Positions 23,038-54,992 of a stretch of 64,000 nucleotides of DNA are shown here, piece by piece. Where the stretch lies: contig CAZDWN010000004.1 in assembly GCA_964509365.1 (NCBI GenBank), positions 32,907 to 96,906 of the forward strand, given 5' to 3'. The notes below the pieces were generated by a model. The model searched no databases, was not told the DNA's origin, and worked only from the letters and a program-made list of their open reading frames with translations. How positions within the stretch are numbered: the stretch's first letter is position 1; the number at the start of each line of letters is the position of its first letter. The DNA is from an uncultured Pseudomonadales bacterium (lineage in GTDB: Bacteria; Patescibacteriota; Microgenomatia; UBA1400; UBA12028). The position numbers and the translations under genes are program-made.

Positions 23038-24966
23038 CTACTGAGTTGGTAATGTTGGCGGGGTCAACCCTGCAACTTCGTTTGCTTTGGCTTCGCGTGC
23101 GATCGCTTCTTTTTCCTGTGGCTGCACCAGTTGTGACGCTTGGCGCTTGCGCTCGAGCTCCATTGGGTTCGTGGTGATCAAATCGTGTTCTTTTTCACTC
23201 GCGATTACACGGATAGCCACGTGGTTTTGACCAGCAAAGAACAGGCCTTCTCCCACGTCCGCAGCCATGAGGAGACGTCGCTCACCTTCAGACAGGAAAA
23301 AGACATCAGTTAGTACAGGAATCGACGCCGATGACTGCTTCATGAGCAGCTGGATCGAAGAGTTCGTCACGACGGCTTTCCCGTAATCAGTATGCAAGAA
23401 ATCCTCGACGTCTTGAGTGATCATGGTGATACCAAGATAATACTTGCGGGCACGCTTCACCAGCGAGTGAAGGAATGAGGCGCTGTCTTTGTGCTTCATG
23501 AAGTACCACGCCTCGTCGATGATGAGCAATCGTCGTCTCACATCTTTCTTCACACGAGTCCAAATAAAGTCCAAGATCATAAACATGGCGATTGGACGCA
23601 GTTCATCTTCGAGTTCTTTGACCGAAAAGACCGTGAAGTGATTGGTGATATCAAAGTTGGACTTTTGGTCAAAGATGCCACGGAAACTTCCTTTGACGAA
23701 TTTCTCAAGCCTTGCAGCGAGGTTATTGGATTCGGTCGTCTCCATACCCACCAATGCCTTGTATAAATCCTCAAGCAATGGAGGTTCATTGCTCTGAGTG
23801 GCAGGGTCTGGAGTAATACCTTTGGCTTTGTATGCGGCGACAATGGCTCGATCGAGAGTTGCGTCTTCCGTCGGGGAGAGCTCACCCATCATGACTCGCA
23901 AGAGGGAATGCAGTGAGATGATCTTCATTCCAAGTTCGTTTTGGCCTTCTTCATAGACATTTGAGAGGTCAAATGGGTTGATCTTTACTTTGCTATCAAA
24001 TCCAAATGAGACATACTCGCCATCGACTGCCTTGGCCAAGTCTTCATACTCATGCTCAGGATCGAGGATGATCACATCAGTATCAAACATGAGGTGACGA
24101 TAGGCTTCGAGCTTTATCGTATACGACTTTCCAGCACCTGATTTGGCAAAGACGACCATGTTTGCATTCTCCATAGAGAACCGGTCAAAAATGACCAATG
24201 AATCATTGTGCTCATTGATTCCATAGACGATCCCTTGCTCCATCGTCAGTTCAGATGAAGTAAATGGAAACGTTGTAGCAAGTGAAGTCGTGTCCATGTT
24301 ACGGACGTAGGAAAGTTTGTCGACGCCTGTGGGAAGAGTGGTTTTAAATCCTTCTTCCATTTGCAACGTCGCATTCTTACTGATGATCAAAAGTGAGCCG
24401 AGTGTGGACTGGATCTGTTTGGTGACGCGATCGAGCTCTTCAAGAGTCTCACCATGGATGGTAATGTAGAGACCAAACTGGAAGAATCTCTCAGCTCCTT
24501 TGGCCAACTGCTCCTGGATCAAGCGTGCATCCTCAAGTTTGATCTCAGTATCAATATTTCCAATTTTGCCTTGCTTGAGATCGGATGAGAGCTCCGCTTC
24601 CATTTCAGTGATCTTTCGTCGTAAATCCTGAAGGATCTTTGCGCTATCGACAGGGAAGATGTACATCGAGATATCCATCTGGTGGGGGAATGTGATCAGT
24701 GGTGAGAGCCAGTTTGCCGGAACGGAACGAGGGTATCCAGAGATAAACAGCGTGCGAGTGTAATTGCCATTAATGCGTTGGTACGTAAAATCAACCTCGA
24801 TGGCTTCTGGAGCAATGATATCAAGAATGCTGACGAGGCCCGAGGAAAATTTTGTGATCTCTTCATCGAGCTTTTGACGAGTTACTTCTTCAGGAGTCAG
24901 TGGAGTACCGGCAGCCGGTGCGGCGGCTTTATTTTTGTTGAGCATTGTAAAAAGATTGAGAGCCAT
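23038..24966 (-). CDS. virB4: T4SS ATPase VirB4/TrbE/TraE family (conjugal-transfer-type)
   Basis: Walker A FAKSGAGKSY. Walker B LLIIDEAWYF. 642 aa, the size of Gram-positive VirB4 homologues. Confidence 0.9.
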   Translation of the reverse strand: MALNLFTMLNKNKAAAPAAGTPLTPEEVTRQKLDEEITKFSSGLVSILDIIAPEAIEVDFTYQRINGNYTRTLFISGYPRSVPANWLSPLITFPHQMDISMYIFPVDSAKILQDLRRKITEMEAELSSDLKQGKIGNIDTEIKLEDARLIQEQLAKGAERFFQFGLYITIHGETLEELDRVTKQIQSTLGSLLIISKNATLQMEEGFKTTLPTGVDKLSYVRNMDTTSLATTFPFTSSELTMEQGIVYGINEHNDSLVIFDRFSMENANMVVFAKSGAGKSYTIKLEAYRHLMFDTDVIILDPEHEYEDLAKAVDGEYVSFGFDSKVKINPFDLSNVYEEGQNELGMKIISLHSLLRVMMGELSPTEDATLDRAIVAAYKAKGITPDPATQSNEPPLLEDLYKALVGMETTESNNLAARLEKFVKGSFRGIFDQKSNFDITNHFTVFSVKELEDELRPIAMFMILDFIWTRVKKDVRRRLLIIDEAWYFMKHKDSASFLHSLVKRARKYYLGITMITQDVEDFLHTDYGKAVVTNSSIQLLMKQSSASIPVLTDVFFLSEGERRLLMAADVGEGLFFAGQNHVAIRVIASEKEHDLITTNPMELERKRQASQLVQPQEKEAIAREAKANEVAGLTPPTLPTQ

Positions 24967-24978
24967 AAAAAACTTTCG

Positions 24979-25905
24979 CTAACTGCTTACAGGTGCTGGT
25001 GGTACTGGCGGTTTTAGGTCAGACTGAATCGATCCAACTTCCTCTGCAATGCTTGCTGGAGCACTCGTCGTCTTTGAATCAAATATCATTTGTGACGCGG
25101 GTTGTGGCGAAATCTGTGGTGTTGCTGCTGGCACAGCGGAAACAGTTGGCGTTGGAGCAGCTATCGGAGTCGGAGTTACTTGTGCTCGTGGTACTGTTGC
25201 GGTCACCATTTCTTGAGGAGGCAACTCTGCATTGACCAGAGGTGAAGAGTACTCTGCAGCTTCTCCGACTCTGATCCCTTTGGCCCCATCAGGATTGTAA
25301 ATGGTATAAAACAACTGAATCAGTTCCTGCGTCTTTACTTGTCGTAAGAATAGCCCGATGCGGGCGAACTGATGCATGAGATGCTCTCGTCGTGGCGCGA
25401 GATTGGTGAGAGCCTTTTCGACAATTGCCGCTTTATCAAGCGGAGCTTGGTTTTTTTTACTCATCCCAGGAATCAGTGTGGATCCCGAAAGAATTCCAGC
25501 TTCAAGGGCAGTATAGGTGATCACAATAAAGAATTTTTTGTCGAGGACGTTTCGTTCTTGCACGAGTTCTTCGACAAATTGTCGATAATCTTTAATATTT
25601 TTTTTGTTGATAGGATTATATGCTTTGATTTCAGCAGTCTTGAGAAGATCTAGATATGAAGTCACATCTTTTCGGACAGACCTAATCACGATTTCAATTG
25701 AAAATGAAAGAGAATTGAGGAGCGCAGCGTAGGCGTAAATTGCTGCATCTTGCTCTTGCTCGGAGTAAAGATCGAAGTTAATCGCACTTGATTGCATCAC
25801 CATTGATACCGAGCCATCTTGCAAGATAATACAATCATTACTGATATCAAAAAGCTCAAGATATTTTTGAGTCGTCGACTGGAGGGCATTCGTTTGATTG
25901 ATCAT
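24979..25905 (-). CDS. T4SS-associated hypothetical protein with Pro/Thr/Ala-rich C-terminal tail
   Basis: 308 aa, no TM. Sits between the PrgI-like and VirB4 genes with 4-nt and 12-nt spacing. Confidence 0.5.
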   Translation of the reverse strand: MINQTNALQSTTQKYLELFDISNDCIILQDGSVSMVMQSSAINFDLYSEQEQDAAIYAYAALLNSLSFSIEIVIRSVRKDVTSYLDLLKTAEIKAYNPINKKNIKDYRQFVEELVQERNVLDKKFFIVITYTALEAGILSGSTLIPGMSKKNQAPLDKAAIVEKALTNLAPRREHLMHQFARIGLFLRQVKTQELIQLFYTIYNPDGAKGIRVGEAAEYSSPLVNAELPPQEMVTATVPRAQVTPTPIAAPTPTVSAVPAATPQISPQPASQMIFDSKTTSAPASIAEEVGSIQSDLKPPVPPAPVSS

Positions 25906-26975
25906 AAACTCTTTATCAAGATTGGCTCGACTACTTGATTATTCAGGACCAGTGAGTACTTGTCAAAACGCAGTCCATCTTTTTCAGTCAAAATTGAATA
26001 CGCTCCACTTTCCAGAGGTGTCACGACAGCAAACTGTCCCAGCGTATTCGTTTTCATTGCGCGCACTGGATTGTTATCTGACTGTCTCGTGATCGTGATG
26101 ATTGCGCCCTCGACTATTTTATCATCATTCGTGACGACCATCCCTGCCAACATATTGGGATTCGTCGGCTTGTTTGGAAATGGAAATCCATTGAGGACGA
26201 TCACCGGTTTTATGACATCGGACTGCTGAAAAATTTGATGAGAGACGACCGTATGAAGCGTATCAGTGATTGCAGGGGTCACTGCTTGTTGTTTCTGGGC
26301 CATCAAATCACTTGTAATGCCAACTTTGTCTTGAGCGGGGATCGATGCAGTCGGCGCTATCTGACCCGTAGCTTCTGGGAGTATGGTGGGCTTCTTTTCC
26401 TCAACCTTCACGGGAGTTTCTGCAATGGTCGGTGTGATAGTCATCTCAGTGATATGTCCAACTTGTGTTGGGGAAGTGGTTTTGGCCTTTGTCGGCGCTT
26501 GAATTGTTTCATTAAAGAGTTTGAGGAGTTCATCAGCAGCTTTTGCTTCCTCATCTTTTTCAACTGGTTCACTGTTTACAGTGTGAACATACTCTTGTAG
26601 GCGTGACTGTCGAATAGGAGTGTAATCAATTTTTGGACTCGTATCCATGTCTTTCGGTGGAGCATAAGTGAAGACGCCAGGAGTGAGGTTTGTCTTTTTC
26701 CAGAAAAACATGGTTGGTTGATAAATTGACTTTACAAACGCAAAAAACCATCGATCAAGTGGGCGTCCTTCAAGGGGAATGAACGCAGCAGCGACGCCCA
26801 TGAGTCCAACGATCGCCATGAGAGGATATTTAAAAATTTGTGGGAGGTTCGTCCAGTAAATAAGTACTGCCGCGATGACACCAGCGGCGACTTCCATAAA
26901 CTGCTTGAGCGTCATTTGCCCAATGAGATGGAATTCATAGCCGGTGACATTTTGCGGGACTGGATGTTCTTGCAT
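25902..26975 (-). CDS. PrgI/VirB3-like T4SS membrane protein with extended C-terminal domain
   Basis: N-terminus with two TM helices (VTGYEFHLIGQMTLKQFMEVAAGVIAAVLIY, MAIVGLMGVAAAF) resembling the PrgI family. Immediately upstream of VirB4 as in Gram-positive systems. Confidence 0.6.
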   Translation of the reverse strand: MQEHPVPQNVTGYEFHLIGQMTLKQFMEVAAGVIAAVLIYWTNLPQIFKYPLMAIVGLMGVAAAFIPLEGRPLDRWFFAFVKSIYQPTMFFWKKTNLTPGVFTYAPPKDMDTSPKIDYTPIRQSRLQEYVHTVNSEPVEKDEEAKAADELLKLFNETIQAPTKAKTTSPTQVGHITEMTITPTIAETPVKVEEKKPTILPEATGQIAPTASIPAQDKVGITSDLMAQKQQAVTPAITDTLHTVVSHQIFQQSDVIKPVIVLNGFPFPNKPTNPNMLAGMVVTNDDKIVEGAIITITRQSDNNPVRAMKTNTLGQFAVVTPLESGAYSILTEKDGLRFDKYSLVLNNQVVEPILIKSL

Positions 26976-27036: not shown

Positions 27037-27597
27037 CTAATAGGTCTCTTCGGCTGTTTGCGAGAGATCTTTTCCAATAGTGCTGAAAAAATCGGCTACC
27101 GTCATCGGCGTAAATCTCCAAATCTCAAACGTTGTTCCGTCATCATTTCTCGCAAAGGCAATCCCTTGCGTTGCAAATATTCTCAGCGGAAAGACGTGAC
27201 CTTGTTGCTTGGTATATCCCGTGGCCTCAGGTGCTCCGAGAGACGTGTACAGCTCTTCGTATTTCTTTGGCTGATTGATGTCAACTCGCTCGATCGAGTA
27301 GGAAAGCGTATCTCCATTGAGGACAAATTGAGTGGGGAATGTCTTGTAATCTGAAGGGTAGTCGAGAGTCTTCGTCGTCCCATTCACGTCTGTCTTTATT
27401 GGACTTCCAAATGCATTGGTAATGTCGGTCTCCATGGATTTTCCAGGTGTTACACCTTGAACGACGTTTGGTGCAGGTGTCGCCGCAGGCGCCTGATCCG
27501 TCTGAAGTTTCGGGGTGAAGTATCGCAGGACTATTGTCCCGATTAAAATCAAGATAAGGAGCAGGATATACCAGTATTTCAGCAATATTTTTCTCAT
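27037..27597 (-). CDS. Membrane-anchored hypothetical protein
   Basis: Start at MRKILLKYWYILLLILILIG (27597). Single N-terminal TM. Confidence 0.45.
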   Translation of the reverse strand: MRKILLKYWYILLLILILIGTIVLRYFTPKLQTDQAPAATPAPNVVQGVTPGKSMETDITNAFGSPIKTDVNGTTKTLDYPSDYKTFPTQFVLNGDTLSYSIERVDINQPKKYEELYTSLGAPEATGYTKQQGHVFPLRIFATQGIAFARNDDGTTFEIWRFTPMTVADFFSTIGKDLSQTAEETY

Positions 27598-27608
27598 AAC
27601 ACTTACTC

Positions 27609-30600
27609 CTAGTAACGTTGTGGAGCACAAGTAGATCCATCGGTAGGCCCACTCGGTTTTCCGTTGTCTTCAGGGAACATATGCACTTGCTCCCAAGCAA
27701 AGTGACTTGGATACGCACTGGCCATATTCATGCATTGACCGCCTAATCCGGGATAAGCTCGATTCATGTACGTCATATACACCGCGATCGATTCGGGAAA
27801 ATCCTCGACTACAGTTCCAGCTCCACCAAATGTATACGTTCGAAGATATCCCTCACTAAATGGACCACGGGTGAAATCTTGTACAAGGCTAGCATGGTTA
27901 TCTTCAATGACGTGTCCTGTCTCGTGAATGAGTGTAAAACGAATGTTGAGTATTGAGCTCGTAGCTGAGAACGTATTATCGAAAAGCGCAACAGTATTAT
28001 TCCCGAGGTATTGACCATACCATCTTGAGTCGGGCCCCACACTGCGACGAGTTAGTGTAACTGATCCGTGATCACATAAAATGTTTCGGTATGTGGGATA
28101 AGCTGCTGTGATGGCAAAGGCTTGGGTTAATTTTTGTTTCTCAATTTCAGACCATGATCCGTCTAGAACTAAGCAAGCGAGGTCATCTGGTGGATTTCCA
28201 AAGGAGACAGTAGCGCTTGTTGAAAATGTTTCACCTTGGGCTTGAGTTGCTCCAGATGAATTTTTGACATCAAATGTGACTGTAAGTACGTTTGATACTC
28301 GTGTGTCAGCGAAACTTGGATCGTACTTTATGGTGTATTCTTGAGTTGCAGTGGACTTAAACACGTCAAGTGGAGGAATCGTCGGAGCGACCGGGTGACC
28401 CTTTGAAGATATACTCACTGTATCAGTGGCATTGGTTATCGTGATCTGGTACGGTTGACCTTTTTCATCAACTTTCGGAGTGAGCTTTAAAGTGTATTTG
28501 ATAGATTTACTTGGAGTGAGGACGCTATTATCAGGATAGGAAGACTCACTCGGCTCCATGATTTTTGTGAGTTCGACATATCTTGAAGAGCCGATATCTT
28601 GTCCATCATTCGGAGTAATAAAAGAACCCGTCATTGCTGATGTGGCAATGAGAGCAGTTGCAGTCACGGTTGTAATGGTCCCGATGATCGTAGTAGCCAC
28701 AGGGAAAGATGCTGTGGTTCCTGGGAGAGCTCCAAGAAATGCATTTGTCCCACCTAATACATTTAGTCCGACTTTGCTCGCAGCAGCTTGCGTACCACTG
28801 AAGATATTCGCACCACTTTTTGCGGCAGCTGAGACCGTCTCAGGTCCGAGCTTGCTCATTGCAGTAAGTCCCTCTTTACCGAGGGTTGCAGTCGATCGAA
28901 TTCCTTCTAACGCTTTCGCTCCGTCTCCAATCCCATAGACGTTGGTCCCGATCATGTGAGCGACACTGGATCCACCAACTGGAATCAAAGATCCGATCGT
29001 CGTAACTCCGGCTCCAATAAATCCTCCTACCACAGTACCGACACCAGGGAAGATGTACGTTCCGATCAAAGCGCCTCCTGCAAATCCACCTGCGGCGCTC
29101 GTGAGTGCTCCGGCTCCAGTGGCTGCGCCTTGTGTAAATGCGTAGACAAGGCCGGCTCCAGTGGCGGCTCCTCCAGCTATGCCAGCTAGAGCCAGAGGAT
29201 TGGAGAGAATGCTCCGGGCGAGTTGGGCAGTCCGCTGCAGTCGACCGGAATTACTATTGATCTGGTTTACGCGGCTGTACGCCTCTCGTTGAGTCTGTGC
29301 TCGATCGGAGTCGTCTAACTGCGGTAGCTCTTGCGCATCGCCGCTACCAGCGAGTTCTATGGCTCCCAAAAGTTCGGCGATATTCTGATCTGCATTGAGC
29401 GGAACATTTTGTTCACCGAAGAGACTGAAAAATTGTCGCTTTTGCTGGCGCTGCTCTGCGTCACGACCAAGCGCAATATTTTCATAAAATTGCTCTTGCA
29501 GCGCGACTATGGTCGCCGCTTCTATGTATTGAGCTTGGAGCAACTCATCTTGCTTCCGTTGTTCCGCAAGTATTTCGACCGCTTCTTCTCGCACTTCACT
29601 AATTGTTTTGCGCTTTTTAATTTCTTGGGCGATTCCATCTCTTTCTTTGCGAGTTTGCTCAAGGGGAGTGGTCAACAGCTTATGATACGTCTCATCCTTT
29701 GGTACAGATGTCTTCAGCTCTGCCATTTGCTCGATGAGTTGTGCTTTGGCTTTTCTGATCTCGCTAGAAAGTTTGCTATTTCCAAAGTCATTGAGATCTT
29801 CAAAAACAGGAATTTTACCTGATTTTTTGAGCAAACTCTTCCGGGCTCGTAGTCGTAAAGCTTCGAAATAGGTGGGGAATGTGATCGCGAATTGAGGATT
29901 TGCGAGCGCCACCTCTTTGGTCAATTGAGCCAGCAATTGAGGAGGCACAGACTCAAAATATGCCGTAACGGTGGCGTACGTCTCGATGTATTCAAGTCGC
30001 CTAGGGTCAGACTCAAAGAACTTCTCTAATGTGGCTGGAGTACTGGAAGTAGCAACGGATTCTTGATTTTGTGATGACGCACGAGTCTTCGCGACTGCTT
30101 GGGAGGCGATATACAGTTCACTGAGTAGAGCTTCTGGAAGTCTCCTGACTGATCGAGAAAGTATTTTATCGATCTCTGCGGGGGTGAGAGATGTCCCTCG
30201 TTTCTCCGTCTCTTCTTCAATCAAATTCTTTGCGACGAGAAACTCGACATCCTCATTGGTGATTGTCCGTTCATCCGCCCCATTGCGCCTGCGCAGCGAG
30301 TTTATGATCGCTGCGCGCATGTCATATGCTTGCTTCAACTGCGCTTTTACGGCTTCATACTCTTTCTTGTCCATCGACTCAAGGTCAAGTTTATTCAAGC
30401 TACGAAATAACGTTTCAAAATCTGGGACAGGTGCGTTGATATCCATGCCATACATGAGAAGCAATCCATCATTGATGGCTTCGGCACGGGCCTTGTTGAT
30501 CTTTTCTCGACGTTCTTCATATGACCCAAACCCAGAAGTGTCTCCGTCTTTGTGTTCACTTGAACTGGTACGGCTTCCAGAGGGAAGAAAAGGCAAGGTT

Positions 30601-42280: not shown

Positions 42281-42322
42281 ATATTCTACACTAAATAATT
42301 CTCTAAAAAACAAGTGGAATAT

Positions 42323-45300: not shown

Positions 45301-45793
45301 GGCCTTTGCCATTCCAAGCAGAAGCAAATGTGTTAAAAAGCTGGGCATACTTTGTATAGTCACAATTCTTCCATTCACCATTGACTGGGTTTTGGTTATT
45401 TATTTCGTTACCGATGGTCACCGGTGTGCCGGCGGGGATTGCTCCAGCGAGCGTCGTCATGTCTTGTGTACTTGTATTGCAGTCAATATTGATACGAGCG
45501 ATCGCCAAGTATCCGCTTGAGAGGAGACTGACACCGGATCCATTCGGATAGACCATCACCACGACGGGGTAGGTGGGGCTTTTTAATCCTGAAGAAGTTA
45601 ACTTGTCTAAGACCTTTTTTTGAGCACCCTCATCACCTTGAATGAGGTGAGTACCGACTTTATCGACTTGAGTAGTTCCTTGGGCCCTGGTCGCAGTTGA
45701 GTCAAATAAAAACAGCCCTACGGCGAGGAGCAAAATGGGGAAGAAAAAGGCAAACGCACGGCAGAGTCGTCGCATGAATATAGTATACAACAC
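42323..45793 (-). CDS. Giant (1156 aa) secreted cell-wall hydrolase. N-terminal clan GH-A glycosidase-like domain plus C-terminal lysozyme-like/lytic transglycosylase (VirB1-like) domain.
   Basis: Signal peptide. IGNEIN (acid/base NE) and LYITEFG (nucleophile TE) about 110 aa apart. C-terminal LQIEGG...GAVGAMQV resembling SLT motifs (ES...GLMQ). Confidence 0.65.
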   Translation of the reverse strand: MLYTIFMRRLCRAFAFFFPILLLAVGLFLFDSTATRAQGTTQVDKVGTHLIQGDEGAQKKVLDKLTSSGLKSPTYPVVVMVYPNGSGVSLLSSGYLAIARINIDCNTSTQDMTTLAGAIPAGTPVTIGNEINNQNPVNGEWKNCDYTKYAQLFNTFASAWNGKGPLGISTMDTINDDYDAATTLNQIFSSGINKAAISAVFANVYQTGGCGAYEATRCTVNSGQWVLSKINSLAGRNLSTAQLYITEFGITTCKDFDCVQDFYVQNNDQPAVAKVGFLRNPTSPDPGNSDWYHTVPAICEYWHQGDLAVEKPEKCGGGKRQVFVYPGIEDMAPDVDKMRQMAAGYTLTCGNQFKIKGDISNESALNNRPPGYEIDCSGNPPDGRCTIPGVWANVIIDSTKAVIPLFRFQGAQVPNPDQPKRRLDDLEGFFSANYTKEELVGAANTLSSSLITPLANGVSRKVIGTQEQCQATITYLQTIKQLCDTENNRSGYTYNDKLDADALKAAANIPATPKPTPIPGECALYSQIPGADARYDTYKKVLEQMPQSFSCRNVDTLTQNEMAWYRSFSKVELTTPKGFKPAYLVHYVDRPETPQTNLDKRVVWLAPGEDANGGIGDPRNLTDRIKVVKVYVPAGFAEVNINAVNNNPDLEPKEKQPTFFPTYTGGFMQTITSIMPMSVQTQIAKTRALVIDKLIKAMPNATSGLGIKCESCSILESNPEYLPRVTIVRRINAEFATSGQDACTHDDLVGETATERVHTINPAGTLDPVKLAKIPVTATLVATKPGSDNRTIKTFLLLPEEYRNITDYETPFLQTFLPYDYQDITKHPEFNFITYESERAANPKAAYKYLQITGSSTSIINPKFDGADLSYTIPDPNAPPVVLPDGTVTQGTKTVDGKLSGQLNLEKTVTVDPQVPGGKIARALWEVVCNVTRPYNGKATIQYPGFEKFLQQGLAACTQGAVGTPSSPGAPVASLCSGTTILPAHADGDWGPLKALVAQAAQSVGIPANYLWGVLQIEGGSTLRAYRNNQTTVACTANSVGAVGAMQVLVKACGAPYDNWGTYSPQAGVAGSTPCDLLASLKVGAQMLKFNYAAQAHPNCSPNYPNASAEEKKWMNAAGAYYGSCEILNASANCTNASGVNLTYGECAIELYAPTY

Positions 45794-45799
45794 CTCACC

Positions 45800-46213
45800 T
45801 TAGAGGGAGATCTTAAACTGAGTAAGCGCGGTGATGCCAGTGAAATCGGAGATGAATCGCAAGATGACATAGGAAGCCAAGGCGACCACAATTCCAATGA
45901 TCGCATACGTAATCGCGTTTTTCCCAGCGTCGATCCCTTTGCTATTGGATCCTGCAGTCATGTATTGAAAAGAACCCATGAGGAACATAATAAATGCCGC
46001 TATCCCGATGATCGTGATAAAGACAGCAAGCACGTTTGACACCAGACAGCCAATGCCCTGAATCGTGGCGACATCTGCTGCCGCCGTGGATGTACCGACA
46101 CACGCACCGGTCCACGCAGTTGTCTGTGCTTGAGCTCTCGGTACAATCGAAAGCACAAAAGCAATCAGTGACGAGAAGTAGGCGGTTTGGAATATTTTTC
46201 GATTTGTCATCAT
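45800..46213 (-). CDS. T4SS pilin-like protein (TrbC/VirB2-type, PF18895-like), paralog 1
   Basis: Signal peptide (MMTNRKIFQTAYFSSLIAFVLSIVPRAQA), then two hydrophobic helices flanking a short polar loop (YMTAGSNSKGIDAGKNAI). Confidence 0.7.
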   Translation of the reverse strand: MMTNRKIFQTAYFSSLIAFVLSIVPRAQAQTTAWTGACVGTSTAAADVATIQGIGCLVSNVLAVFITIIGIAAFIMFLMGSFQYMTAGSNSKGIDAGKNAITYAIIGIVVALASYVILRFISDFTGITALTQFKISL

Positions 46214-46250
46214 AGCAAGATTATAGCATTCCCGAGGTCGACTGCGTATC

Positions 46251-46278
46251 AAAAAAGCCCCCGGGGATACCGGGGGCC
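46251..46278 (-). terminator. Rho-independent terminator downstream of pilin paralog 2
   Basis: 8-bp GC stem (GCCCCCGG/CCGGGGGC) followed by a T6 run on the minus strand. Confidence 0.65.
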
Positions 46279-46300
46279 TTCTCATCACACCAATCAACAA

Positions 46301-46690
46301 TTAATATGCTGATGGGAGAGTGATGTTTGTTCCAATTGAAATTCCGAAGAAGTTCTGCAGCACAACTGAGATTGCCAATGCTGACGCAACAATCGCCAAA
46401 CCAATGATTGCATTGGTGATCTTTTGTCGAGCACTTTCAGTCTTACTCTTGTCTCCGCCAGCGGTCAGCCACTCAATACCACCCCAGATGAGGTAGATGA
46501 ACACCAACAAGCCGACGATACCGAGAGTGAACTTCAACAGCGAACTGATCAGTTTCCCGATGTCGTTGATCTTAAAGCCAGCTCCTGCGGCGTCGACGTT
46601 GATTGGAGTATCAACAGCGAATGCTGTTGAGGCTGCAAGTGCGAGAGTCGTGACACCTGTCGAAATCCCAGTGATTAATTTTTTGACCAT
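46301..46690 (-). CDS. T4SS pilin-like protein, paralog 2
   Basis: Signal peptide, then helix-WLTAGGDKSK-loop-helix (IYLIWGGIEWLTAGGDKSKTESARQKITNAIIGLAIV). Confidence 0.75.
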   Translation of the reverse strand: MVKKLITGISTGVTTLALAASTAFAVDTPINVDAAGAGFKINDIGKLISSLLKFTLGIVGLLVFIYLIWGGIEWLTAGGDKSKTESARQKITNAIIGLAIVASALAISVVLQNFFGISIGTNITLPSAY

Positions 46691-46776: not shown

Positions 46777-47451
46777 TTACTGACAGCCTCGGATGTCCAC
46801 ACCAGGAAGTAGTGTCGTCCCGCCCAAACAGCCACATGGCTCAAGATGCGGATAGTTGAGGCCTCCCGCTCCAGCTGGCATACAGCGGACCGAGGCAGCT
46901 CCACTGTTTGAACAATAGCCGCCGGCACCGTTGTCACTGACAGTACTTCCAATAGCAATATTCCCGGCACACGTGTTCGCGACTGGCGTCGTCCCTGTAG
47001 TAGTGTTGCTTCCTCCTGGGGCAGGTTGCGTGGTGGTCGTCCCACCTCCTCCATTGCCTCCGCCGATGGTGACTTTGGTCGAAAGACCAAGGAAATTTAT
47101 GAGTATCGTATAGAACACGAATACGCATGCAAGGATGGCTAAGCCAATAATCGATTGCGTGATGCGACTGCGTCCTGCTTCGATCTTTGCTTTATCGCCC
47201 CCAGAGAGCAACCACTCTGCGCCGCCCCAAATAAGATAGACGAACAGAATAAAGCCACTGATGCCTGCGACCCACTTTGAGACGGAGCCAAGGAGTATTC
47301 CAAGATTTGAGACGAGATACCCAGACGTCGCCGGGGCAACGGTCACGGAATCATCATAGCCAGGAGGAAGTCCTTGCGCAGTGATCACACTTGGCAGAAA
47401 AATAGCACTGCCAATCAGAATTGCCAAAATAAGTGTGAACTTTTTTATCAT
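46777..47451 (-). CDS. T4SS pilin-like protein, paralog 3, with Gly/Thr- and Cys-rich C-terminal extension
   Basis: Pilin core VYLIWGGAEWLLSGGDKAKIEAGRSRITQSIIGLAIL plus about 100 aa G/T/C-rich tail. Confidence 0.72.
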   Translation of the reverse strand: MIKKFTLILAILIGSAIFLPSVITAQGLPPGYDDSVTVAPATSGYLVSNLGILLGSVSKWVAGISGFILFVYLIWGGAEWLLSGGDKAKIEAGRSRITQSIIGLAILACVFVFYTILINFLGLSTKVTIGGGNGGGGTTTTQPAPGGSNTTTGTTPVANTCAGNIAIGSTVSDNGAGGYCSNSGAASVRCMPAGAGGLNYPHLEPCGCLGGTTLLPGVDIRGCQ

Positions 47452-47456: not shown

Positions 47457-47819
47457 CTAGGCTCTGTACTCATGCGTTGGAATACTTCCCATTCCGTAGT
47501 TGCCGATGTTAAATCGTGTGCGCAGACCAAGGAAATTGAGAACAAGCCCAAAGATCAAGAAGACGGATGCCAATATGACGAGTCCGATCACGCCCTGCGT
47601 CATCATACCTCGTGCTTCTTCGATCTTTCCTTTCTCTCCTCCAGCAGTAATCCAGCTAAATGCACCGTAGAGTAAGAAGTAGAGGACGGCGATCGTCCCA
47701 ACCGTGAGAATGGCGCTTGCGCCAATTTGTAACAATTGATCTAGAGTGCCAATAGGAGATATCAGCGCAGTTGATCCGCCAATGTTGAGTGGTTGAGTCT
47801 GGGCAAGCAGTATAAACAT
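47457..47819 (-). CDS. T4SS pilin-like protein, paralog 4
   Basis: Core LYGAFSWITAGGEKGKIEEARGMMTQGVIGLVIL. Confidence 0.72.
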   Translation of the reverse strand: MFILLAQTQPLNIGGSTALISPIGTLDQLLQIGASAILTVGTIAVLYFLLYGAFSWITAGGEKGKIEEARGMMTQGVIGLVILASVFLIFGLVLNFLGLRTRFNIGNYGMGSIPTHEYRA

Positions 47820-47830: not shown

Positions 47831-48169
47831 CTATACATTATTCGCAAATTGTAGATTCAATAGATCGATTCCTAATACTTTGCCTACGAAGACGCTGATC
47901 GCAACGGTGCCCGCTAGGACGAGCATACCGATGACACTTTGAGTCATGCGATCTCTGGCTGCCTGTACTTTGCCTTTTTCACCACCCGCAGTGATCCATT
48001 CAAGTGCCCCAATGATCAACATAATAAGGAGTGCTAAGCCACCGAGAGTGATTGCCGTTCGCCAGAGCGTAATGATGATACTGGCCAGAGCCGTGCTCGG
48101 AGCGGCGGCAGCAGAACCAAAAACAGGAGCGACGGCCGGGTTGGTAATCTGTGCAATAAGTGTAAACAT
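47831..48169 (-). CDS. T4SS pilin-like protein, paralog 5
   Basis: Core IIGALEWITAGGEKGKVQAARDRMTQSVIGMLVL. Confidence 0.72.
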   Translation of the reverse strand: MFTLIAQITNPAVAPVFGSAAAAPSTALASIIITLWRTAITLGGLALLIMLIIGALEWITAGGEKGKVQAARDRMTQSVIGMLVLAGTVAISVFVGKVLGIDLLNLQFANNV

Positions 48170-48173: not shown

Positions 48174-48548
48174 TTACCTCGGTAAAATTGTTCCTATCAT
48201 TTTCACTGGGTCAAGTAAATCTATGCCAAGTACTCTGCCAACGACACCGGCAATACTATAAGCAGCGATCACTACGACAAGTCCAAGTGCGGCTTGAGTC
48301 ATCTGGTTGCGAGCCGCTTCGACTTTGCCTTTGTCCCCACCAGCTGTAATCCAGGACAGACCAGCAAAGATCAAGTAAATCAAAAACATGATACCGGCGA
48401 GACCAGTGACGAATCCAATGATATTACTGATGAAAAGGGCAATTGGCGTGCCCACACCAACTGCACCTGCGCCAGGAGAAAAAACCGCGGTAGGTGGATC
48501 TAGTTGACCAAGTTGAAGTGTGCCTGCGGCTGCAAGTAGTTGTGACAT
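48174..48548 (-). CDS. T4SS pilin-like protein, paralog 6
   Basis: Core IFAGLSWITAGGDKGKVEAARNQMTQAALGLVVV. Confidence 0.72.
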   Translation of the reverse strand: MSQLLAAAGTLQLGQLDPPTAVFSPGAGAVGVGTPIALFISNIIGFVTGLAGIMFLIYLIFAGLSWITAGGDKGKVEAARNQMTQAALGLVVVIAAYSIAGVVGRVLGIDLLDPVKMIGTILPR

Positions 48549-48551: not shown

Positions 48552-48908
48552 TTATGGCAATGCCGTCGGGATTGTCGGCCTAAGAATAAACATAGAATCA
48601 CCAAACAAAAGCAAACTCACGAGCGCTGTTATTAAGAATGCACCCGCGATAATCACGAGACCAATCAAACTGTACGTCATCTGATTCATGGCCTGTTCAG
48701 TGGCTTTCGCATTCCCGCCTGAACTTAAATACGTGTAACCGGCCGAGATAATATTGAATAGTCCAAAAAGACCGGCGACTACGGTAACGAGTTTAATGAT
48801 ATTTGAGATAAAGACCAATAGTCCCGCCGGACCGGGTGTGAACTTATCTACTCCTGGCGGGGTAGTCACTGAGCCAAATATTTGAAAAACCATGAAGCTA
48901 AGCATCAT
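48552..48908 (-). CDS. T4SS pilin-like protein, paralog 7
   Basis: Core ISAGYTYLSSGGNAKATEQAMNQMTYSLIGLVII. Confidence 0.68.
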   Translation of the reverse strand: MMLSFMVFQIFGSVTTPPGVDKFTPGPAGLLVFISNIIKLVTVVAGLFGLFNIISAGYTYLSSGGNAKATEQAMNQMTYSLIGLVIIAGAFLITALVSLLLFGDSMFILRPTIPTALP

Positions 48909-48920
48909 ATGTATTTTGTA

Positions 48921-49274
48921 TTATAGCGTCGCATTCAATATTGGTACACCGGTGAATGCCTGAACGATCTGAATAATCCAATACGCAGCAAAAATAATGA
49001 TAAAACCGATGATCGCTCCCATGATCTGATTCTTGCCAGATTCCACGCTCTTGGCATTGCCTCCGGAGGCAACGATCGAAAAGCCGCCACCGATTATCAG
49101 GAAAAGCAGTACCAACCCGGAAATGACAAAGATGATGGGGATCAAGAGATTGAGAAACGATGCGACAGAAGGATATGAGCTGGCAATTGTGCCACCTTTT
49201 TCATTGATTTTGAGCATGGTCCCCAGGCTCTGTGCCGGTGCTCCATTTCCACTGCCTAAAGCAAGTAAACTCAT
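48921..49274 (-). CDS. T4SS pilin-like protein, paralog 8
   Basis: Core IIGGGFSIVASGGNAKSVESGKNQIMGAIIGFIII. Start at MSLLALGS (49274), avoiding overlap with the divergent sigma gene. Confidence 0.65.
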   Translation of the reverse strand: MSLLALGSGNGAPAQSLGTMLKINEKGGTIASSYPSVASFLNLLIPIIFVISGLVLLFLIIGGGFSIVASGGNAKSVESGKNQIMGAIIGFIIIFAAYWIIQIVQAFTGVPILNATL

Positions 49275-49290
49275 ACCAGTAGTATACAAT

Positions 49291-49854
49291 ATGTTCATGC
49301 AGTTTAGAAATGAGCAAGACCTCATCGTAAAGCTCAAGGCGGGCGAAAGTTCGAGCGTCAACATCTGGTATGCGACCTCAAAAGACGAGTTACTTGCATT
49401 TTTCCTCAAGAGAATGAGTAGTGAAGCTGATGCGCAGGAGCTCGTCCATGATACGTATCTGTCTTGTCTTTCTTCGCTTCCACTTTTTCGTGGTGATTCC
49501 GGATTATGGACATTTATGGTGTCGATTGCTCGTCACGAGCTCGCTGACTACTGGCGCAAACGATACGCCAAGAAAGCTATTGCGCTTTTACCGTTTGGGC
49601 AAGAACTTCTTGATTCCGTCGAGGGTGATGCTGATGAGCACTCCTGGGTACTCGATCACGGGCGGGAAATATCCCATATCCTGCATCAATTACCTGAGGA
49701 AATCTCAGAATTGCTGCAACTCAAATATGTCGACGGCTTGTCTGTAAAAGAGCTTGCGACTCACTACGGGTTGAGTTTTGCGGCGATGCAAAGTAAATTG
49801 CATCGAGCCAAAGCGGTATTTAAAGAACAGTATGAACGAACCACAATTTCTTGA
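49291..49854 (+). CDS. ECF-type RNA polymerase sigma factor (sigma-70 regions 2 and 4)
   Basis: Region 2 ELVHDTYLSCL...ARHELADYWRKRY. Region 4 LLQLKYVDGLSVKELATHYGLSFAAMQSKLHRAK. Start at Met 49291, not the tool's 49033. Confidence 0.8.
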   Translation: MFMQFRNEQDLIVKLKAGESSSVNIWYATSKDELLAFFLKRMSSEADAQELVHDTYLSCLSSLPLFRGDSGLWTFMVSIARHELADYWRKRYAKKAIALLPFGQELLDSVEGDADEHSWVLDHGREISHILHQLPEEISELLQLKYVDGLSVKELATHYGLSFAAMQSKLHRAKAVFKEQYERTTIS

Positions 49855-51337: not shown

Positions 51338-51338
51338 T

Positions 51339-52142: not shown

Positions 52143-52152
52143 AGTCTCTCCT

Positions 52153-52830
52153 ATGTCACTTCCACAACACGTCGCGATCATCATGGACGGAAATCGTCGC
52201 TGGGCAAAGCAAAATAAAATGAAAGCCCTGCAAGGGCACTCCTATGTGGTGGATCACTGTATCGAACCATTGGTTGATCGCTGTATCGCACTCGGCATCC
52301 CATATCTGACTCTCTGGGCATTCAGCTCGGAAAACTGGCATCGCGACAAAGAAGAAGTCGCTGGCCTGATGCAGATCTTTCGCAGAGCGTTTTCAAAGAA
52401 AGTGGAAGACTTGCACAAAAAAGGAGTCAAATTGGGAATTATTGGCGATATTGATGCATTTCCAAAAGATATCGCTGACAACGCGAAAGAGTGGGTAGCT
52501 ATCAGCCAAAAGAATACGAAAATAACGGTAAATTTTGCACTAAACTATGGAGGAAGATCAGAGATACTACGCGCCGTTGCCAAACTATCAATGAATAACG
52601 AACAAGTAACAACGGAGAATTTTGAAAAGCATTTATACACGGCAGGAATGCCAGATCCAGATTTATTGATTCGCCCAGGAGGAGAGAAGCGAATGTCTGG
52701 TTTTATGCCTTGGCAAACGGTGTATACAGAGCTGTACTTCACTGACACACTCATGCCGGACTTTGGTCCGGAAGAGCTTGATCTTGCGATAGAAGAATAC
52801 CAGTCTCGACAACGACGATTTGGAAAATGA
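52153..52830 (+). CDS. uppS: Undecaprenyl diphosphate synthase (cis-prenyltransferase)
   Basis: HVAIIMDGNRRWA, WAFSSENWHR, IRPGGEKRMSGFMPWQ. Confidence 0.9.
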   Translation: MSLPQHVAIIMDGNRRWAKQNKMKALQGHSYVVDHCIEPLVDRCIALGIPYLTLWAFSSENWHRDKEEVAGLMQIFRRAFSKKVEDLHKKGVKLGIIGDIDAFPKDIADNAKEWVAISQKNTKITVNFALNYGGRSEILRAVAKLSMNNEQVTTENFEKHLYTAGMPDPDLLIRPGGEKRMSGFMPWQTVYTELYFTDTLMPDFGPEELDLAIEEYQSRQRRFGK

Positions 52831-52831
52831 G

Positions 52832-53416
52832 CTACAAGATGCTGATTCCAAAAATAGTTTGCACCAGTTGTGCGATCCAATAGGAGGAGAAGAGCAAAAT
52901 AAAGCCGATGATCGCTGCATTGATGCGCTGTTTCCCCGCTTCTTGAGATTTCGGATTCGCTGCTCCAGTCAACATCTCAAATCCTCCCCATATCAACATA
53001 ATAAACAGGATCAACCCTCCAAATGTCATCAAATAGGGAAGCAATCGGCTGAGAATTCCACGAGGAGTGGTCAAATCTGCATTTGGCGTCCCTCCAAAAA
53101 TTGATGCATTTAAACTGTCCAATGTCGCCGCATTAAGACCAACGCCTCCTCCTCCAGGTGCTTGACCAAATTGTTGGCAAAGCTGAGATGGTGTGGGTGG
53201 GCCGCAATAATACGCAGTGGTTCCGTCGGGGCACGTAGTCGTTTGAAGCGTACAAGTCGCTGGAATTGGATTACCGTTTGGACCAGTAATCGTCTGCAGG
53301 CAGGTAATTGGAGCAGTTGACCAGCTACCACAATTTCCTGCTGCGGCGCTGACTCGTTGAGTAGTTGAAAGAAGGACGAGTAAGGCAAGTACGCAGCTAA
53401 TACAGAATCTTCTCAT
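52832..53416 (-). CDS. T4SS pilin-like protein, paralog 9, with Cys-rich N-terminal extension
   Basis: Signal peptide, about 100 aa Cys/Pro-rich region, then pilin core LIWGGFEMLTGAANPKSQEAGKQRINAAIIGFILL. Confidence 0.7.
   Translation of the reverse strand: MRRFCISCVLALLVLLSTTQRVSAAAGNCGSWSTAPITCLQTITGPNGNPIPATCTLQTTTCPDGTTAYYCGPPTPSQLCQQFGQAPGGGGVGLNAATLDSLNASIFGGTPNADLTTPRGILSRLLPYLMTFGGLILFIMLIWGGFEMLTGAANPKSQEAGKQRINAAIIGFILLFSSYWIAQLVQTIFGISIL
52971..53039. repeat. Near-identical 69-bp segment (66/69) shared with 53596..53664
   Basis: caacatctcaaatcctccccatatcaacataataaacaggatcaaccctccaaatgtcatcaaataggg compared with copy 2. Flanks diverge but stay protein-similar. Confidence 0.8.
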
Positions 53417-53457
53417 ACCTGTAGCGTACAGGATTTTGCGTGCCTTGAAAAGCCGAT

Positions 53458-53799
53458 TTATAGAATAGAAATGCCGAAGATCGTTTGCACCAGTTGTGCC
53501 AACCAGTAAGACGAGAAGAGTAAGATAAAGCCAATGAGTGCCGACGTGATCCTCGATTTGCCTGCTTGTTGGGCTTTTGGGTCGGCAGCTCCTCCCAACA
53601 TCTCAAACCCTCCCCAGATCAACATGATAAACAGGATCAACCCTCCAAATGTCATCAAATAGGGGAGTAGTTCTGAGAGGATGCCTCTTGGCGTGCTAAA
53701 AGTAGTCGCCTTGGCTGCATCAGGTACGAGCTCAGTATTGAGAGCATCCAGACACCCCTTCGTCAACGTGTCACAGGCAGCTGCTATGAGATTTGGCAT
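53458..53799 (-). CDS. T4SS pilin-like protein, paralog 10 (recent duplicate of paralog 9 core)
   Basis: C-terminal 77 aa about 85 percent identical to paralog 9 (PRGILSELLPYLMTFGGLILFIMLIWGGFEML...). Confidence 0.7.
   Translation of the reverse strand: MPNLIAAACDTLTKGCLDALNTELVPDAAKATTFSTPRGILSELLPYLMTFGGLILFIMLIWGGFEMLGGAADPKAQQAGKSRITSALIGFILLFSSYWLAQLVQTIFGISIL
53596..53664. repeat. Second copy of the 69-bp near-identical segment
   Basis: See 52971..53039. Confidence 0.8.
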
Positions 53800-53822
53800 A
53801 TATAAGGGTATTTTACCATTCT

Positions 53823-54992
53823 TTATGTCCCAAAGCCTGGAATCTGGAGAATTGTCACTCCGATGAAGCGCAGAATGATGATCGAGAAAATGACAAACAA
53901 GAGACCCATGATCGCACTCGTGATCATTTCTTGCCCCTCTTTGACTCGCGTCGGATCGCCACTACTTGTCGTCAGTAGGAATGCGCCGTACAGGATTGAG
54001 AGAAGCACGAAGCCTCCGGAGATCCCCATGCCAATGCGAATGAAAGACGTGACAATGCCTTCCTTTGTTGTTCCCACACATCCAAACGCAGTCCAGTACT
54101 CCCCATTGTTAAAACAATTTTGGCATAGAGTCTTATCGTTACCGGTTGCCTGATCACACAAAACGAAAGGAGCCGCAGTCGTCCCTGTTCCTGAATTACC
54201 GTTTCCTGGATTTGTAGGGACTGTTGTCCCACTATTTGGATCATAGGCAAGATTAATTGAGCAGTATCCTTGGATTCCTCCAGCTTGAATTATCGAGATT
54301 GTTGTCGTTTTCAAAGGATCAATAGCGAACGATTTTGAGACAGTTCCGGAACTGCTTGTGAAATTACTAGAAAACTGGTACGTCGCACCCGTCTGTGCAA
54401 GACGAATCTGGTATGACTTGGAGTCTTTTATGCCGCTGGCGTTGTATGTCGTCGTAACCGAAGTTGTACTAGCAAGGATTGGATTTGGTGAATAGGCTAA
54501 ACTGCTGCAATCAGGAGTAATCACTGTGCTAGATATATCACTGATGCTGAACGCATTCTCAAACTTGCACAAATCTTGAGCTGTAGAGCCAATTGTTCCT
54601 CGCAGGACCAGGTAGTAGTCTGCAGACGTTCCGGCATTTGCAGGCTTTATCGTATCTATTGGCACTGGAGCTGTAACGGTCTTTCCATCAGTCGAAAGTG
54701 TGGCTGTTCTCTTTGAACAATAGCCGAATGTATCGCCATTCAAACATGCCCAAATTTCAAAATTAGACGCGGTTGACTGCCAATTTGGCGTTGTTGGGGT
54801 AAAAGTGAATTGAACGTTTGAACCCGGCCCGTAGTCTGCAGGTACTGTTGAATCGGAAGAATAAGTCTTTGTCGTCCCAGCAGCTGGACTCAAAGAACAG
54901 TTAAAAACCTGAGCAGAAACAATGTAATCGGAGTGCAAGAAAACAAGAGACAGAATCAAGACTACAAAGATAGCTTTTATTTTGGCCCCCAT
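53823..54992 (-). CDS. Large pilin-like protein (389 aa). Signal peptide, about 280-aa Ser/Thr/Cys-rich extracellular domain (adhesin-like), C-terminal T4SS-pilin module.
   Basis: C-terminus LLSILYGAFLLTTSSGDPTRVKEGQEMITSAIMGLLFVIF matches the pilin core pattern. Eight-plus Cys in the N-domain. Confidence 0.62.
   Translation of the reverse strand: MGAKIKAIFVVLILSLVFLHSDYIVSAQVFNCSLSPAAGTTKTYSSDSTVPADYGPGSNVQFTFTPTTPNWQSTASNFEIWACLNGDTFGYCSKRTATLSTDGKTVTAPVPIDTIKPANAGTSADYYLVLRGTIGSTAQDLCKFENAFSISDISSTVITPDCSSLAYSPNPILASTTSVTTTYNASGIKDSKSYQIRLAQTGATYQFSSNFTSSSGTVSKSFAIDPLKTTTISIIQAGGIQGYCSINLAYDPNSGTTVPTNPGNGNSGTGTTAAPFVLCDQATGNDKTLCQNCFNNGEYWTAFGCVGTTKEGIVTSFIRIGMGISGGFVLLSILYGAFLLTTSSGDPTRVKEGQEMITSAIMGLLFVIFSIIILRFIGVTILQIPGFGT

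Follow-up and report, generated by a model that had tools for sequence, protein, structure and literature searches.

What is a type IV secretion system (T4SS) for when its genes lie near the replication origin of a chromosome and no relaxase or coupling-protein gene lies with them? The question is raised by positions 32,907 to 96,906 of contig CAZDWN010000004.1 (assembly GCA_964509365.1), titled as an uncultured Pseudomonadales bacterium. This 64-kb stretch, called the window, was the part of the genome examined. Every non-nested open reading frame (ORF) of at least 80 aa that was taken as a gene candidate was scanned for protein families with hidden Markov models (HMMs); the family matches given below are to Pfam and NCBIfam. 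With a probability of roughly 0.8, the locus is a Patescibacteria-type chromosomal T4SS in a Microgenomates/Woesebacteria-like genome, that of an ultra-small bacterium of the candidate phyla radiation, as judged from the type of its VirB4 ATPase, the adjoining TrsD-like and PrgI genes, an array of VirB2-type pilins, and a dnaA/dnaN setting in which relaxase and coupling protein are absent. By analogy, its likeliest role would be contact with a host cell, with transfer to or from that cell through a pilus or conduit, rather than plasmid conjugation, because relaxase and coupling protein are missing at the locus and the T4SS is essential in the only genetically tested relative.

The ATPase core and its chromosomal setting

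The VirB4-type ATPase (642 aa; 23038..24966, minus strand) passed the cut-offs of both libraries, in agreement with an earlier sequence-only reading of this DNA that had called it VirB4/TrbE. In Pfam it matched P-loop_TraG (94.8 bits) and CagE_TrbE_VirB (21.4 bits, cut-off 21), with AAA_10 and DUF87 also matched, and in NCBIfam it matched NF045971, the 'VirB4-like conjugal transfer ATPase, CD1110 family', at 382.9 bits against a cut-off of 325. The second-best NCBIfam family was the ATPase of Mycoplasma integrative conjugative elements (ICEs), at 258 bits and below cut-off. Only positions 177-734 of the 752 in the CD1110 profile were covered, and the usual N-terminal domain is missing. The upstream 308-aa ORF (24979..25905, minus strand), absent from the earlier gene list, matched N-terminal regions of VirB4 profiles (VirB4_plasma 111-235, E=1.4e-6; CD1110 11-121) and TrsD NF041427 (E=4.1e-5), all below cut-offs; VirB4 is therefore effectively split, and this TrsD-like protein is its split-off N-terminal domain. 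'TrsD' homologues were reported as a split part of VirB4 in a survey of the Patescibacteria (PMC12102498).

The next gene encodes a PrgI/VirB3-like membrane protein of 357 aa (25902..26975, minus strand; Pfam PrgI 37.4 bits, cut-off 27), with transmembrane (TM) helices at 21-39 and 47-65 followed by a C-terminal beta-sandwich-like extension that weakly matches CarboxypepD_reg at 276-336. Its identity had been proposed correctly, and its placement immediately upstream of VirB4 had not, the TrsD-like ORF standing between the two.

VirB4 is 70-95% identical across records named Woesebacteria, Pacebacteria, Cerribacteria and Saccharimonadia, and the best matches in this range were all Patescibacteria records; such identities suggest strong purifying selection. 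The closest VirB4 loci, at 80-95% identity, came from Woesebacteria, Cerribacteria and other metagenome-assembled genomes (MAGs) of the Microgenomates group, and the only locus labelled Saccharibacteria had a VirB4 56% identical. Saccharibacteria were therefore rejected as the source, and the match to them that had been drawn earlier gives way to one with Woesebacteria/Cerribacteria. Many of the relatives' MAG records (loci L001-L080) are titled 'uncultured Pseudomonadales', 'Gammaproteobacteria', 'Bathyarchaeia archaeon' or 'Clostridia bacterium', which on Patescibacteria-type loci are evidently wrong taxonomic labels.

The window is chromosome close to the replication origin. Its left flank carries yidC, rnpA, dnaA (4441-5931) and dnaN (6241-7344), then pentose-phosphate and nucleotide genes and, further on, two class A penicillin-binding proteins, a GH18 enzyme and RNase J; the right flank carries SpoIID, SmpB with transfer-messenger RNA (tmRNA), a ComF-like protein (60669-61361) and NusA. 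virB4 lies about 17 kb from dnaA. Coding density is high and GC content even (0.42-0.51), at 0.44-0.51 inside the T4SS region and 0.42-0.48 outside it, with no step and no island boundary.

A single contiguous locus between 23.0 and 55.0 kb, as first described, was rejected, the genes falling into three clusters on the minus strand with housekeeping genes in between. Cluster 1 (32233 to 23038), the energy and membrane core, holds VirB4, the TrsD-like protein, PrgI/VirB3, a bitopic protein and a 1209-aa protein; cluster 2 (49409 to 40352) holds eight VirB2-type pilins, a 1156-aa secreted protein and a VirB6-like protein; cluster 3 (54992 to 52832) holds three further pilins. The separators are FtsH, a 5′-3′ exonuclease, an LTD protein, a NUDIX protein, an amino-acid-kinase-fold protein and undecaprenyl-diphosphate synthase (UppS). 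When genes within 10 kb of VirB4 were collected from 80 related loci, TrsD-like proteins were found in 75, PrgI in 72, DnaA in 58 and DnaN in 56.

Whether such a setting could belong to an ordinary integrated conjugative element, with relaxase, coupling protein and integrase just outside the window, was considered and judged very improbable. tRNA genes are common integration sites, and two of them (Ser and Arg) are found 750 bp past the 3′ end of virB4, whose best family was itself defined on a Clostridioides conjugative transposon; besides these tRNA genes nothing favours integration there. Among the scanned ORFs of the window, no type IV coupling protein (T4CP)/VirD4, VirB11, relaxase, integrase or recombinase family was matched, which bears out the absence of VirD4, VirB11, relaxase and integrase reported earlier, and a direct-repeat search of the window returned no att-like or tRNA-derived repeats. 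FtsH, the exonuclease and UppS are interspersed among the T4SS genes, which have dnaA/dnaN and further core genes on their flanks; most of the 80 related genomes show the same chromosomal surroundings, and the survey reports a relaxase near virB4 in 15 cases only (PMC12102498). The housekeeping flanks, even GC and lack of att repeats, together with the dnaA/dnaN neighbourhood in most of the 80 genomes and the published Patescibacteria T4SSs, favour the view already taken in the sequence-only reading, of a chromosomal T4SS used at the cell surface or on a host rather than in conjugation. The absence of VirD4 from the window says little of the genome; in most surveyed Patescibacteria genomes VirD4 homologues are present, far from virB4 (PMC12102498).

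Pilin arrays, the VirB6-like protein and the sigma factor

Exactly 11 VirB2/TrbC-type pilin paralogs, the number first counted, were recovered. Eleven ORFs matched Pfam T4SS_pilin (PF18895, gathering score 26.6 bits), seven above the gathering score and four below it (25.6, 25.3, 22.7 and 17.3 bits). An alignment showed a two-helix hairpin around a TAGG-x-K loop common to all 11, and an HMM built from them and run on the six-frame translation of the window returned the same 11 ORFs and no twelfth; the hairpin and this HMM support the four sub-cut-off pilins, the HMM having been built from these same ORFs. Identity in the pilin core averages 30%, with one recent pair at 84% and other pairs at 15-48%.

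The pilin genes form arrays of eight (49409 to 45800) and three (54992 to 52832), all on the minus strand. In the first array, the pilins are of 166 aa (45800..46300; PF18895 31.8 bits), 129 aa (46301..46690; 42.9 bits, and NF045849 at E=2.9e-6, below cut-off), 224 aa with a Gly/Thr/Cys-rich C-terminal tail (46777..47451; 34.7 bits and alignment), 120 aa (47457..47819; 25.6 bits, below cut-off, with hairpin and loop and a match to the HMM built here at E=1.7e-28), 112 aa (47831..48169; 22.7 bits, below cut-off, with alignment), 124 aa (48174..48548; 38.4 bits, TrbC 24.5 bits) and 118 aa (48552..48908; 29.0 bits), and the array opens with an ORF of 162 aa (48921..49409; 25.3 bits, below cut-off, with alignment) whose true start is probably further in. 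The second array consists of a 194-aa pilin with a Cys-rich N-terminal outside domain (52832..53416; 38.5 bits), a 113-aa pilin (53458..53799; 39.8 bits) and a 389-aa protein that joins a pilin-like hairpin to an N-terminal secreted domain of about 300 aa (53823..54992; 17.3 bits, E=0.0053). The last is the weakest pilin call (NF045849 E=0.0049, below cut-off), and its hairpin aligns with the others. A 231-nt direct repeat of 77% identity (52845-53075 and 53471-53701), together with the core identity of 84%, marks the genes at 52832..53416 and 53458..53799 as a recent duplication. NF045849, to which two of the pilins are weakly similar at scores below cut-off, is the 'pilin-like conjugal transfer protein' family of the Mycoplasma ICE; this hints that VirB2-like hairpins may not be unique to Patescibacteria among monoderm T4SSs.

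Between the pilins and the convergent giant described below lies a polytopic membrane protein of 653 aa (40352..42313, minus strand; the database copy starts at 42274 and has 640 aa), with a signal peptide and at least six TM helices. It matched no Pfam family (PF04610 included) or NCBIfam family even at E<=10, a PDB sequence search was without match, and none of 120 listed homologues carried a Pfam domain. An AlphaFold model was made from 117 sequences (pLDDT 76.7, with the TM core above 90) and searched with Foldseek against 350,542 PDB chains. The five best matches were all TrwI/VirB6 of R388, at weak values (E=0.036-0.12, probability 0.57-0.99, target TM-score 0.25-0.40, about 300 columns). 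The best reading of the predicted fold is that the protein is VirB6-like, not a proven family member; of the VirB6/TrbL assignment given before, the polytopic topology stood, the fold matched VirB6 weakly, and a family HMM match was not obtained. In 21 of the 80 related loci, this gene and virB4 are no more than 10 kb apart. A scan with the VirB6-like alignment yielded 23 metagenome loci with full flanks, and in all 23 the gene has pilin genes upstream. VirB6 homologues were scarce in Microgenomatia in the published survey, where extreme divergence was suspected (PMC12102498); on the strength of its modelled fold, the 653-aa family is a candidate for the component missed there.

The pilins bear on a further alternative, in which the VirB2-like proteins stay in the membrane as a short channel and the eleven paralogues are variants of its lining. 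The pilin-like proteins of Mycoplasma conjugative elements are presumed to remain in the membrane, and it is to their family that two pilins show sub-cut-off similarity, as VirB4 does to the Mycoplasma ICE ATPase; a VirB5-like tip protein was not found, and Gram-positive T4SSs are generally without pili (PMC10633639). Eleven paralogues as divergent as these nevertheless resemble surface diversification, outside domains that are large or rich in Cys occur in several of them, VirB6 is the platform of pilus assembly in the solved system that the 653-aa protein resembles, and reviews leave pilus formation possible (PMC12857230). The channel was accordingly rated rather unlikely.

Divergent from the eight-pilin array is a gene for an extracytoplasmic function (ECF)-type sigma factor (49291..49854, plus strand; Sigma70_ECF 37.3, Sigma70_r2 34.1 and Sigma70_r4_2 34.4 bits). 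Its ORF opens at 49033 and the family matches run from residue 97, with M87 or M89 as the likely start. The gene has the same position in locus L081 and in a JGI contig of 834 kb and is present in 13 of the 23 full-flank loci, an arrangement which suggests that the pilin/VirB6 operon has a regulator of its own. On the 3′ side of the sigma factor gene are two small membrane ORFs (49778-50044 and 50025-50339), with a possible anti-sigma partner among them. Further on, between the pilin arrays, the NUDIX, amino-acid-kinase-fold and UppS genes (50607-52830, plus strand) may be an isoprenoid/lipid-carrier gene set; UppS adjoins pilins near virB4 also in L010, L017 and L019.

Three giant proteins and the conserved gene order

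Three ORFs of 1209, 1206 and 1156 aa were present as first listed. The 1156-aa protein (42323..45793, minus strand) consists of an N-terminal anchor or signal, a predicted clan GH-A glycoside hydrolase barrel, a Cys-rich middle and a predicted lysozyme-like end; it is placed outside the cytoplasm because of the N-terminal anchor and its 29 cysteines. The family is rare, with 47 clusters among 1.84 billion representative proteins. The protein had no Pfam match (SLT and lysozyme families included) and no PDB sequence match, the family profile likewise found nothing in PDB, and comparison of the C-terminal part of the family with SLT_3-bearing relatives by hhalign and hmmsearch was not significant. 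Its AlphaFold (AF2) model (pLDDT 87) was matched by Foldseek in PDB to the GH128 endo-beta-1,3-glucanase 6uax_A (E=2.7e-4, TM-score 0.53), followed by GH79, GH5 and GH10 enzymes, the list being filled by TIM barrels. In clan GH-A, the catalytic glutamates are an acid/base after strand 4, in an NE motif, and a nucleophile after strand 7. The N-terminal domain (about 46-300) is a clan GH-A (beta/alpha)8 barrel in the model, with GNE130 after strand 4 (125-127) and TE247FG in strand 7 (243-250), so that barrel and both Glu positions are present and E130 and E247 are candidate catalytic residues of a predicted activity. Some homologues match Pfam Cellulase or Glyco_hydro_cc.

At the other end, three homologues of the same architecture finish in an SLT_3 lysozyme-like domain. 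When the model was searched against the BFVD library of viral structures, about 20 of the 50 best matches were phage proteins of the LT_GEWL, SLT or lysozyme type, over about 165 columns at a probability of up to 1.0 and E=0.02-0.5, Foldseek not reporting the matched query residues. By our inference these matches belong to the C-terminal domain (about 985-1156), which is all-helical in the model and in which E1018, at the end of helix 1008-1018 and followed by GAVGAMQ, is a candidate catalytic Glu. Thus the VirB1-like transglycosylase that had been read as fused into this hydrolase found support at the level of the predicted fold, and not as a match to an SLT HMM.

The 1209-aa protein (27609..31238, minus strand) heads the VirB4 cluster, and its gene overlaps the next. 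About 700 N-terminal residues are charged and coiled, without signal peptide and cytoplasmic; a glycine-rich hydrophobic (glycine-zipper) region at about 715-870 and an outside domain at about 880-1209 follow. The outside part contains HETGH at 1105-1109 and the invariant C1022 and C1055. A word-indexed homologue search returned only the protein itself, and the family was assembled from translated related loci; its alignment conserves TLxHExGH and a downstream EDFAE, with E1149 nearly invariant. A metzincin, as suggested before, was rejected: the HETGH motif is real, but HETGHVIEDNH lacks the Gly and homologues do not conserve the third His, the Glu of EDFAE being conserved instead. The family profile matched in PDB the CapP toxin (E=0.0028), IrrE (E=0.27) and the SlyB glycine zipper (E=0.085), and from its motifs the C-terminal module is an ImmA/IrrE-like zincin (HExxH...E), peptidase-like in sequence. 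Among ten aligned family members, the C-terminal enzyme domain is a zincin in eight and Peptidase_M23 in two (L018:2717-6538 and L023:2064-4085; the zincin counterpart in the window lies at 27609-28601, minus strand). The counterpart in Southlakia epibionticum, SEML1_0007, has 1113 aa, is essential, and ends in a DD-peptidase fold (PMC10633639). We read the family, from its sequences, as a membrane-spanning T4SS protein whose outward-facing wall peptidase would be exchangeable.

Next to it is encoded a bitopic protein of 197 aa (27037..27630, minus strand; TM helix 15-33, outside domain of about 160 aa). Homologues stand directly after the 1209-family gene in L004, L006, L029, L049 and L055 and always follow that family. 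Searched against PDB, the profile of the 197-aa family had no match; by analogy to the NTF2-like SEML1_0012, the protein could be a VirB8 equivalent.

The 1206-aa protein (36637..40257, plus strand) is a cytoplasmic orphan convergent with the VirB6-like gene. No TM helix, Cys or Walker A motif was found in it, which agrees with its earlier description as soluble. Neither the protein by itself nor its family of ten members matched anything in Pfam, NCBIfam or PDB, apart from scattered single matches when the family members were scanned with Pfam, and a metagenome scan with the 1206-aa pair found nothing. The ORF at the same position in L081 is 23% identical over 1147 aa (E=3e-61).

The positions of the giants were compared in the 23 full-flank loci. 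Directly upstream of the VirB6-like gene, an ORF of 750-1455 aa was found in 23 of 23, and directly downstream a convergent ORF of 720-1374 aa in 22 of 23, with a third large ORF usually beyond it. Positional counterparts were linked to the giants by jackhmmer in 28 loci for the 1156-aa protein, 10 for the 1206-aa protein (the same-position convergent ORF) and 47 for the 1209-aa family, counts that are approximate, since iterated profiles of coiled or low-complexity giants may drift and one ORF (L038:11863-14181) was matched by two giant families. Compared directly, the 1156-aa protein and a relative's positional counterpart gave E=1e-147; single-sequence PDB searches of four unknown large proteins gave nothing useful. 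L081 and the JGI contig, whose VirB6-like proteins are 49% and 43% identical to that of the window, have the exact order of the window, including the mid-locus FtsH and exonuclease. The underlying order is ECF sigma, pilins, glycosidase/lysozyme giant, VirB6-like protein, convergent cytoplasmic giant, peptidase giant, bitopic protein, PrgI, TrsD and VirB4, and the three giants and the ECF sigma factor keep their positions across related loci. The Microgenomates T4SS may be a larger conserved unit than published, from ECF sigma through VirB4. It is quite improbable that the cytoplasmic orphan family forms a new core component of the machine; if true, the orphan would be a substrate dock replacing the coupling protein, or the main translocated effector, and the sigma factor would turn on the pilin/VirB6 operon at host contact.

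Two small genes belong to cluster 1 by position. The first gene of the cluster encodes a secreted helical protein of 211 aa with an N-terminal hydrophobic segment (31598..32233, minus strand), with a homologue only in the closest locus, L004. It is followed by a putative lipoprotein of 112 aa with a lipobox-like LAGC (31279..31617, minus strand), whose ORF overlaps the upstream one by 20 nt and lies 40 nt from the 1209-aa gene, and of which a homologue was absent from related loci. A motif starting GGAGAGTGA(A/T)GTT occurs three times near gene ends in the T4SS clusters (31268-31292, 40285-40309 and 46315-46339); the copies are 76-80% identical over 25 nt and probably due to chance. Promoter and terminator scans of the window were not clearly above shuffled expectation.

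Other features lie outside the clusters. tRNA-Ser(cga) and tRNA-Arg(gcg) (22106-22294, minus strand) overlap the start of a 301-aa ORF (22130-23035, plus strand), and the real gene therefore begins after 22294; its product is a DUF4395-like membrane protein, convergent to virB4 in the six closest loci. At 11981-17861 (minus strand), between the origin region and the T4SS genes, the two class A penicillin-binding proteins surround the GH18 glycosidase in a wall-synthesis and remodelling cluster near the secretion genes. At 57690-59709 (plus strand), a DUF5657 protein (89 aa), of a family that we take to be typical of candidate phyla radiation genomes, is followed by a 570-aa single-TM protein without family match. 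SmpB and, after it, the tmRNA (403 nt) occupy 59725-60616; the predicted tag peptide of the tmRNA is unusually long at 28 residues (ATKVSNAVAFVKSLFDFSPVTSNVYATA).

Role of the system and its place among T4SSs

The mechanism proposed is by analogy with R388/VirB and Gram-positive systems. VirB4 and its TrsD-like domain, anchored at the membrane by PrgI/VirB3, would extract pilin hairpins and pass them to the VirB6-like platform, from which a filament or conduit would arise. The two outward-facing hydrolases would open the cell's own wall and possibly the host envelope, and the divergent pilin paralogues would vary the surface that meets different hosts.

Also weighed was a DNA-uptake or import machine, like Helicobacter ComB or archaeal Ced, that feeds nucleotides or DNA to a cell unable to synthesise them. 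Import systems derived from T4SSs function without relaxase, the window contains the ComF-like gene (60669-61361), and T4SS genes adjoin competence genes in class ABY1 (PMC12102498). VirB4 weakly matches CedB (60.6 bits, cut-off 700), but this is generic P-loop similarity, and no ComEC or DprA-type gene was found inside the clusters of the window. In S. epibionticum, comEC is needed for competence and not for viability, whereas the T4SS is essential (PMC12857230), and its essentiality is therefore not via the known uptake route. An import machine was for these reasons considered distinctly unlikely.

Several points weigh against a host-contact system of the Patescibacteria type. To our knowledge, pilus formation by VirB2-like proteins has never been shown in a monoderm. 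The assignment of VirB4 to a monoderm (MPF-FATA-related) type, nearest to Patescibacteria, comes from HMM scores and identity; that of VirB6 leans on a predicted fold with a weak E-value (0.036), and that of the lytic transglycosylase on a predicted fold with weak E-values (0.02-0.5) and an unlocated matched part. A VirB8-like protein was not demonstrated in the window, the PDB search with the 197-aa profile being empty. A VirD4 homologue may well lie elsewhere in the genome, and hence the system may transfer DNA or coupled substrates. Essentiality data come from Saccharibacteria only, by transposon sequencing (Tn-seq) in S. epibionticum, and the role in Microgenomates would follow by analogy.

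The kind of system is already described for Patescibacteria, from 2023 to 2025, and the window is a clean, nearly complete Microgenomates example of it. In S. epibionticum ML1, epibiotic growth requires a T4SS encoded beside dnaA/dnaN (Wang et al. 2023, PMC10633639); its locus (SEML1_0006-0019) encodes an essential array of six pilins and large proteins with hydrolase domains at their ends, and neither a relaxase nor a coupling protein is recognisable there. A survey of the phylum (Quinonero-Coronel et al. 2025) found a distinct VirB4 clade sharing ancestry with monoderm MPF-FATA systems, TrsD, PrgI, proximity to dnaA and rare relaxases, with sparse detection of VirB6, VirB8 and VirB1, and 441 arrays of 2-11 pilin genes, which reach their highest abundance in Microgenomatia and Saccharimonadia and have a mean pilin identity of 25%, compared with the mean core identity of 30% in the window (PMC12102498). 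A 2025 review lists the Patescibacteria T4SSs as a recognised subgroup (PMC12857230). The window shares with them virB4 beside a TrsD-like protein of about 300 aa and PrgI, a polytopic candidate for VirB6, a divergent PF18895 array, large proteins with predicted wall-hydrolase ends, the place beside dnaA/dnaN and the absence of relaxase and coupling protein from the locus. The composition had been called notable for its giants and its number of pilins; eleven pilins fall inside the published range of 2-11 and giant wall hydrolases are already on record in the Saccharibacteria locus, so the composition is less unusual than claimed.

Unlike S. epibionticum, the organism of the window belongs to the Microgenomates group and its T4SS is split in three clusters. 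The VirB6-like protein has 653 aa and no ARM-repeat extension, whereas SEML1_0013 has 1088 aa and carries one. The hydrolases are a predicted GH-A barrel with a lysozyme-like end and an ImmA/IrrE-like zincin in the window, and two lysozyme-like domains with a cysteine proteinase and a DD-peptidase in S. epibionticum, and the syntenic 1206-aa orphan and ECF sigma factor set the window apart. In contrast to the scarcity of VirB6 in Microgenomatia in the survey, a fold-level candidate was present at every related locus examined.

With the MPF-FATA systems (CTn2 CD1110, pCF10 Prg/Pcf, pGO1 Trs and pIP501), the window shares a CD1110-family VirB4, PrgI/VirB3, a TrsD-like protein, predicted membrane-anchored wall hydrolases and the lack of outer-membrane core components. 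It differs in having no relaxase, coupling protein, oriT or adhesin, in its housekeeping chromosomal setting, and in its eleven VirB2-type pilins, which MPF-FATA conjugation systems lack. The likeness to VirB/Trw (MPF-T, R388) lies in the VirB2-type pilins (weak TrbC/VirB2 Pfam matches), the TrwI/VirB6-like predicted fold and a lytic-transglycosylase-like enzyme that would take the VirB1 role, a similarity at fold level only; the window contains no VirB5, VirB7, VirB9, VirB10, VirB11 or VirD4, and the cell is monoderm. The T4SS of the Mycoplasma ICE (Mbov_0395, pilin-like; Mbov_0397, ATPase) is approached by VirB4, at 258 bits, and by weak pilin matches, all below cut-offs, which suggests that pilin-like hairpins may occur also in Mycoplasma, another monoderm T4SS lineage; the Mycoplasma systems are mobile and carry DNA-processing genes of their own.

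What the window adds is a fold-level VirB6 candidate for Microgenomates, a domain reading of the giants with an exchangeable peptidase end in one of them, and the finding that the cytoplasmic orphan and the ECF sigma factor keep their places in related loci. The fast-evolving giants and the sigma factor are candidates for wall-breaching, regulatory and substrate functions in the Patescibacteria T4SS, the first for which essentiality to the cell that carries it has been shown and, among monoderms, the first that may build a VirB2 pilus.

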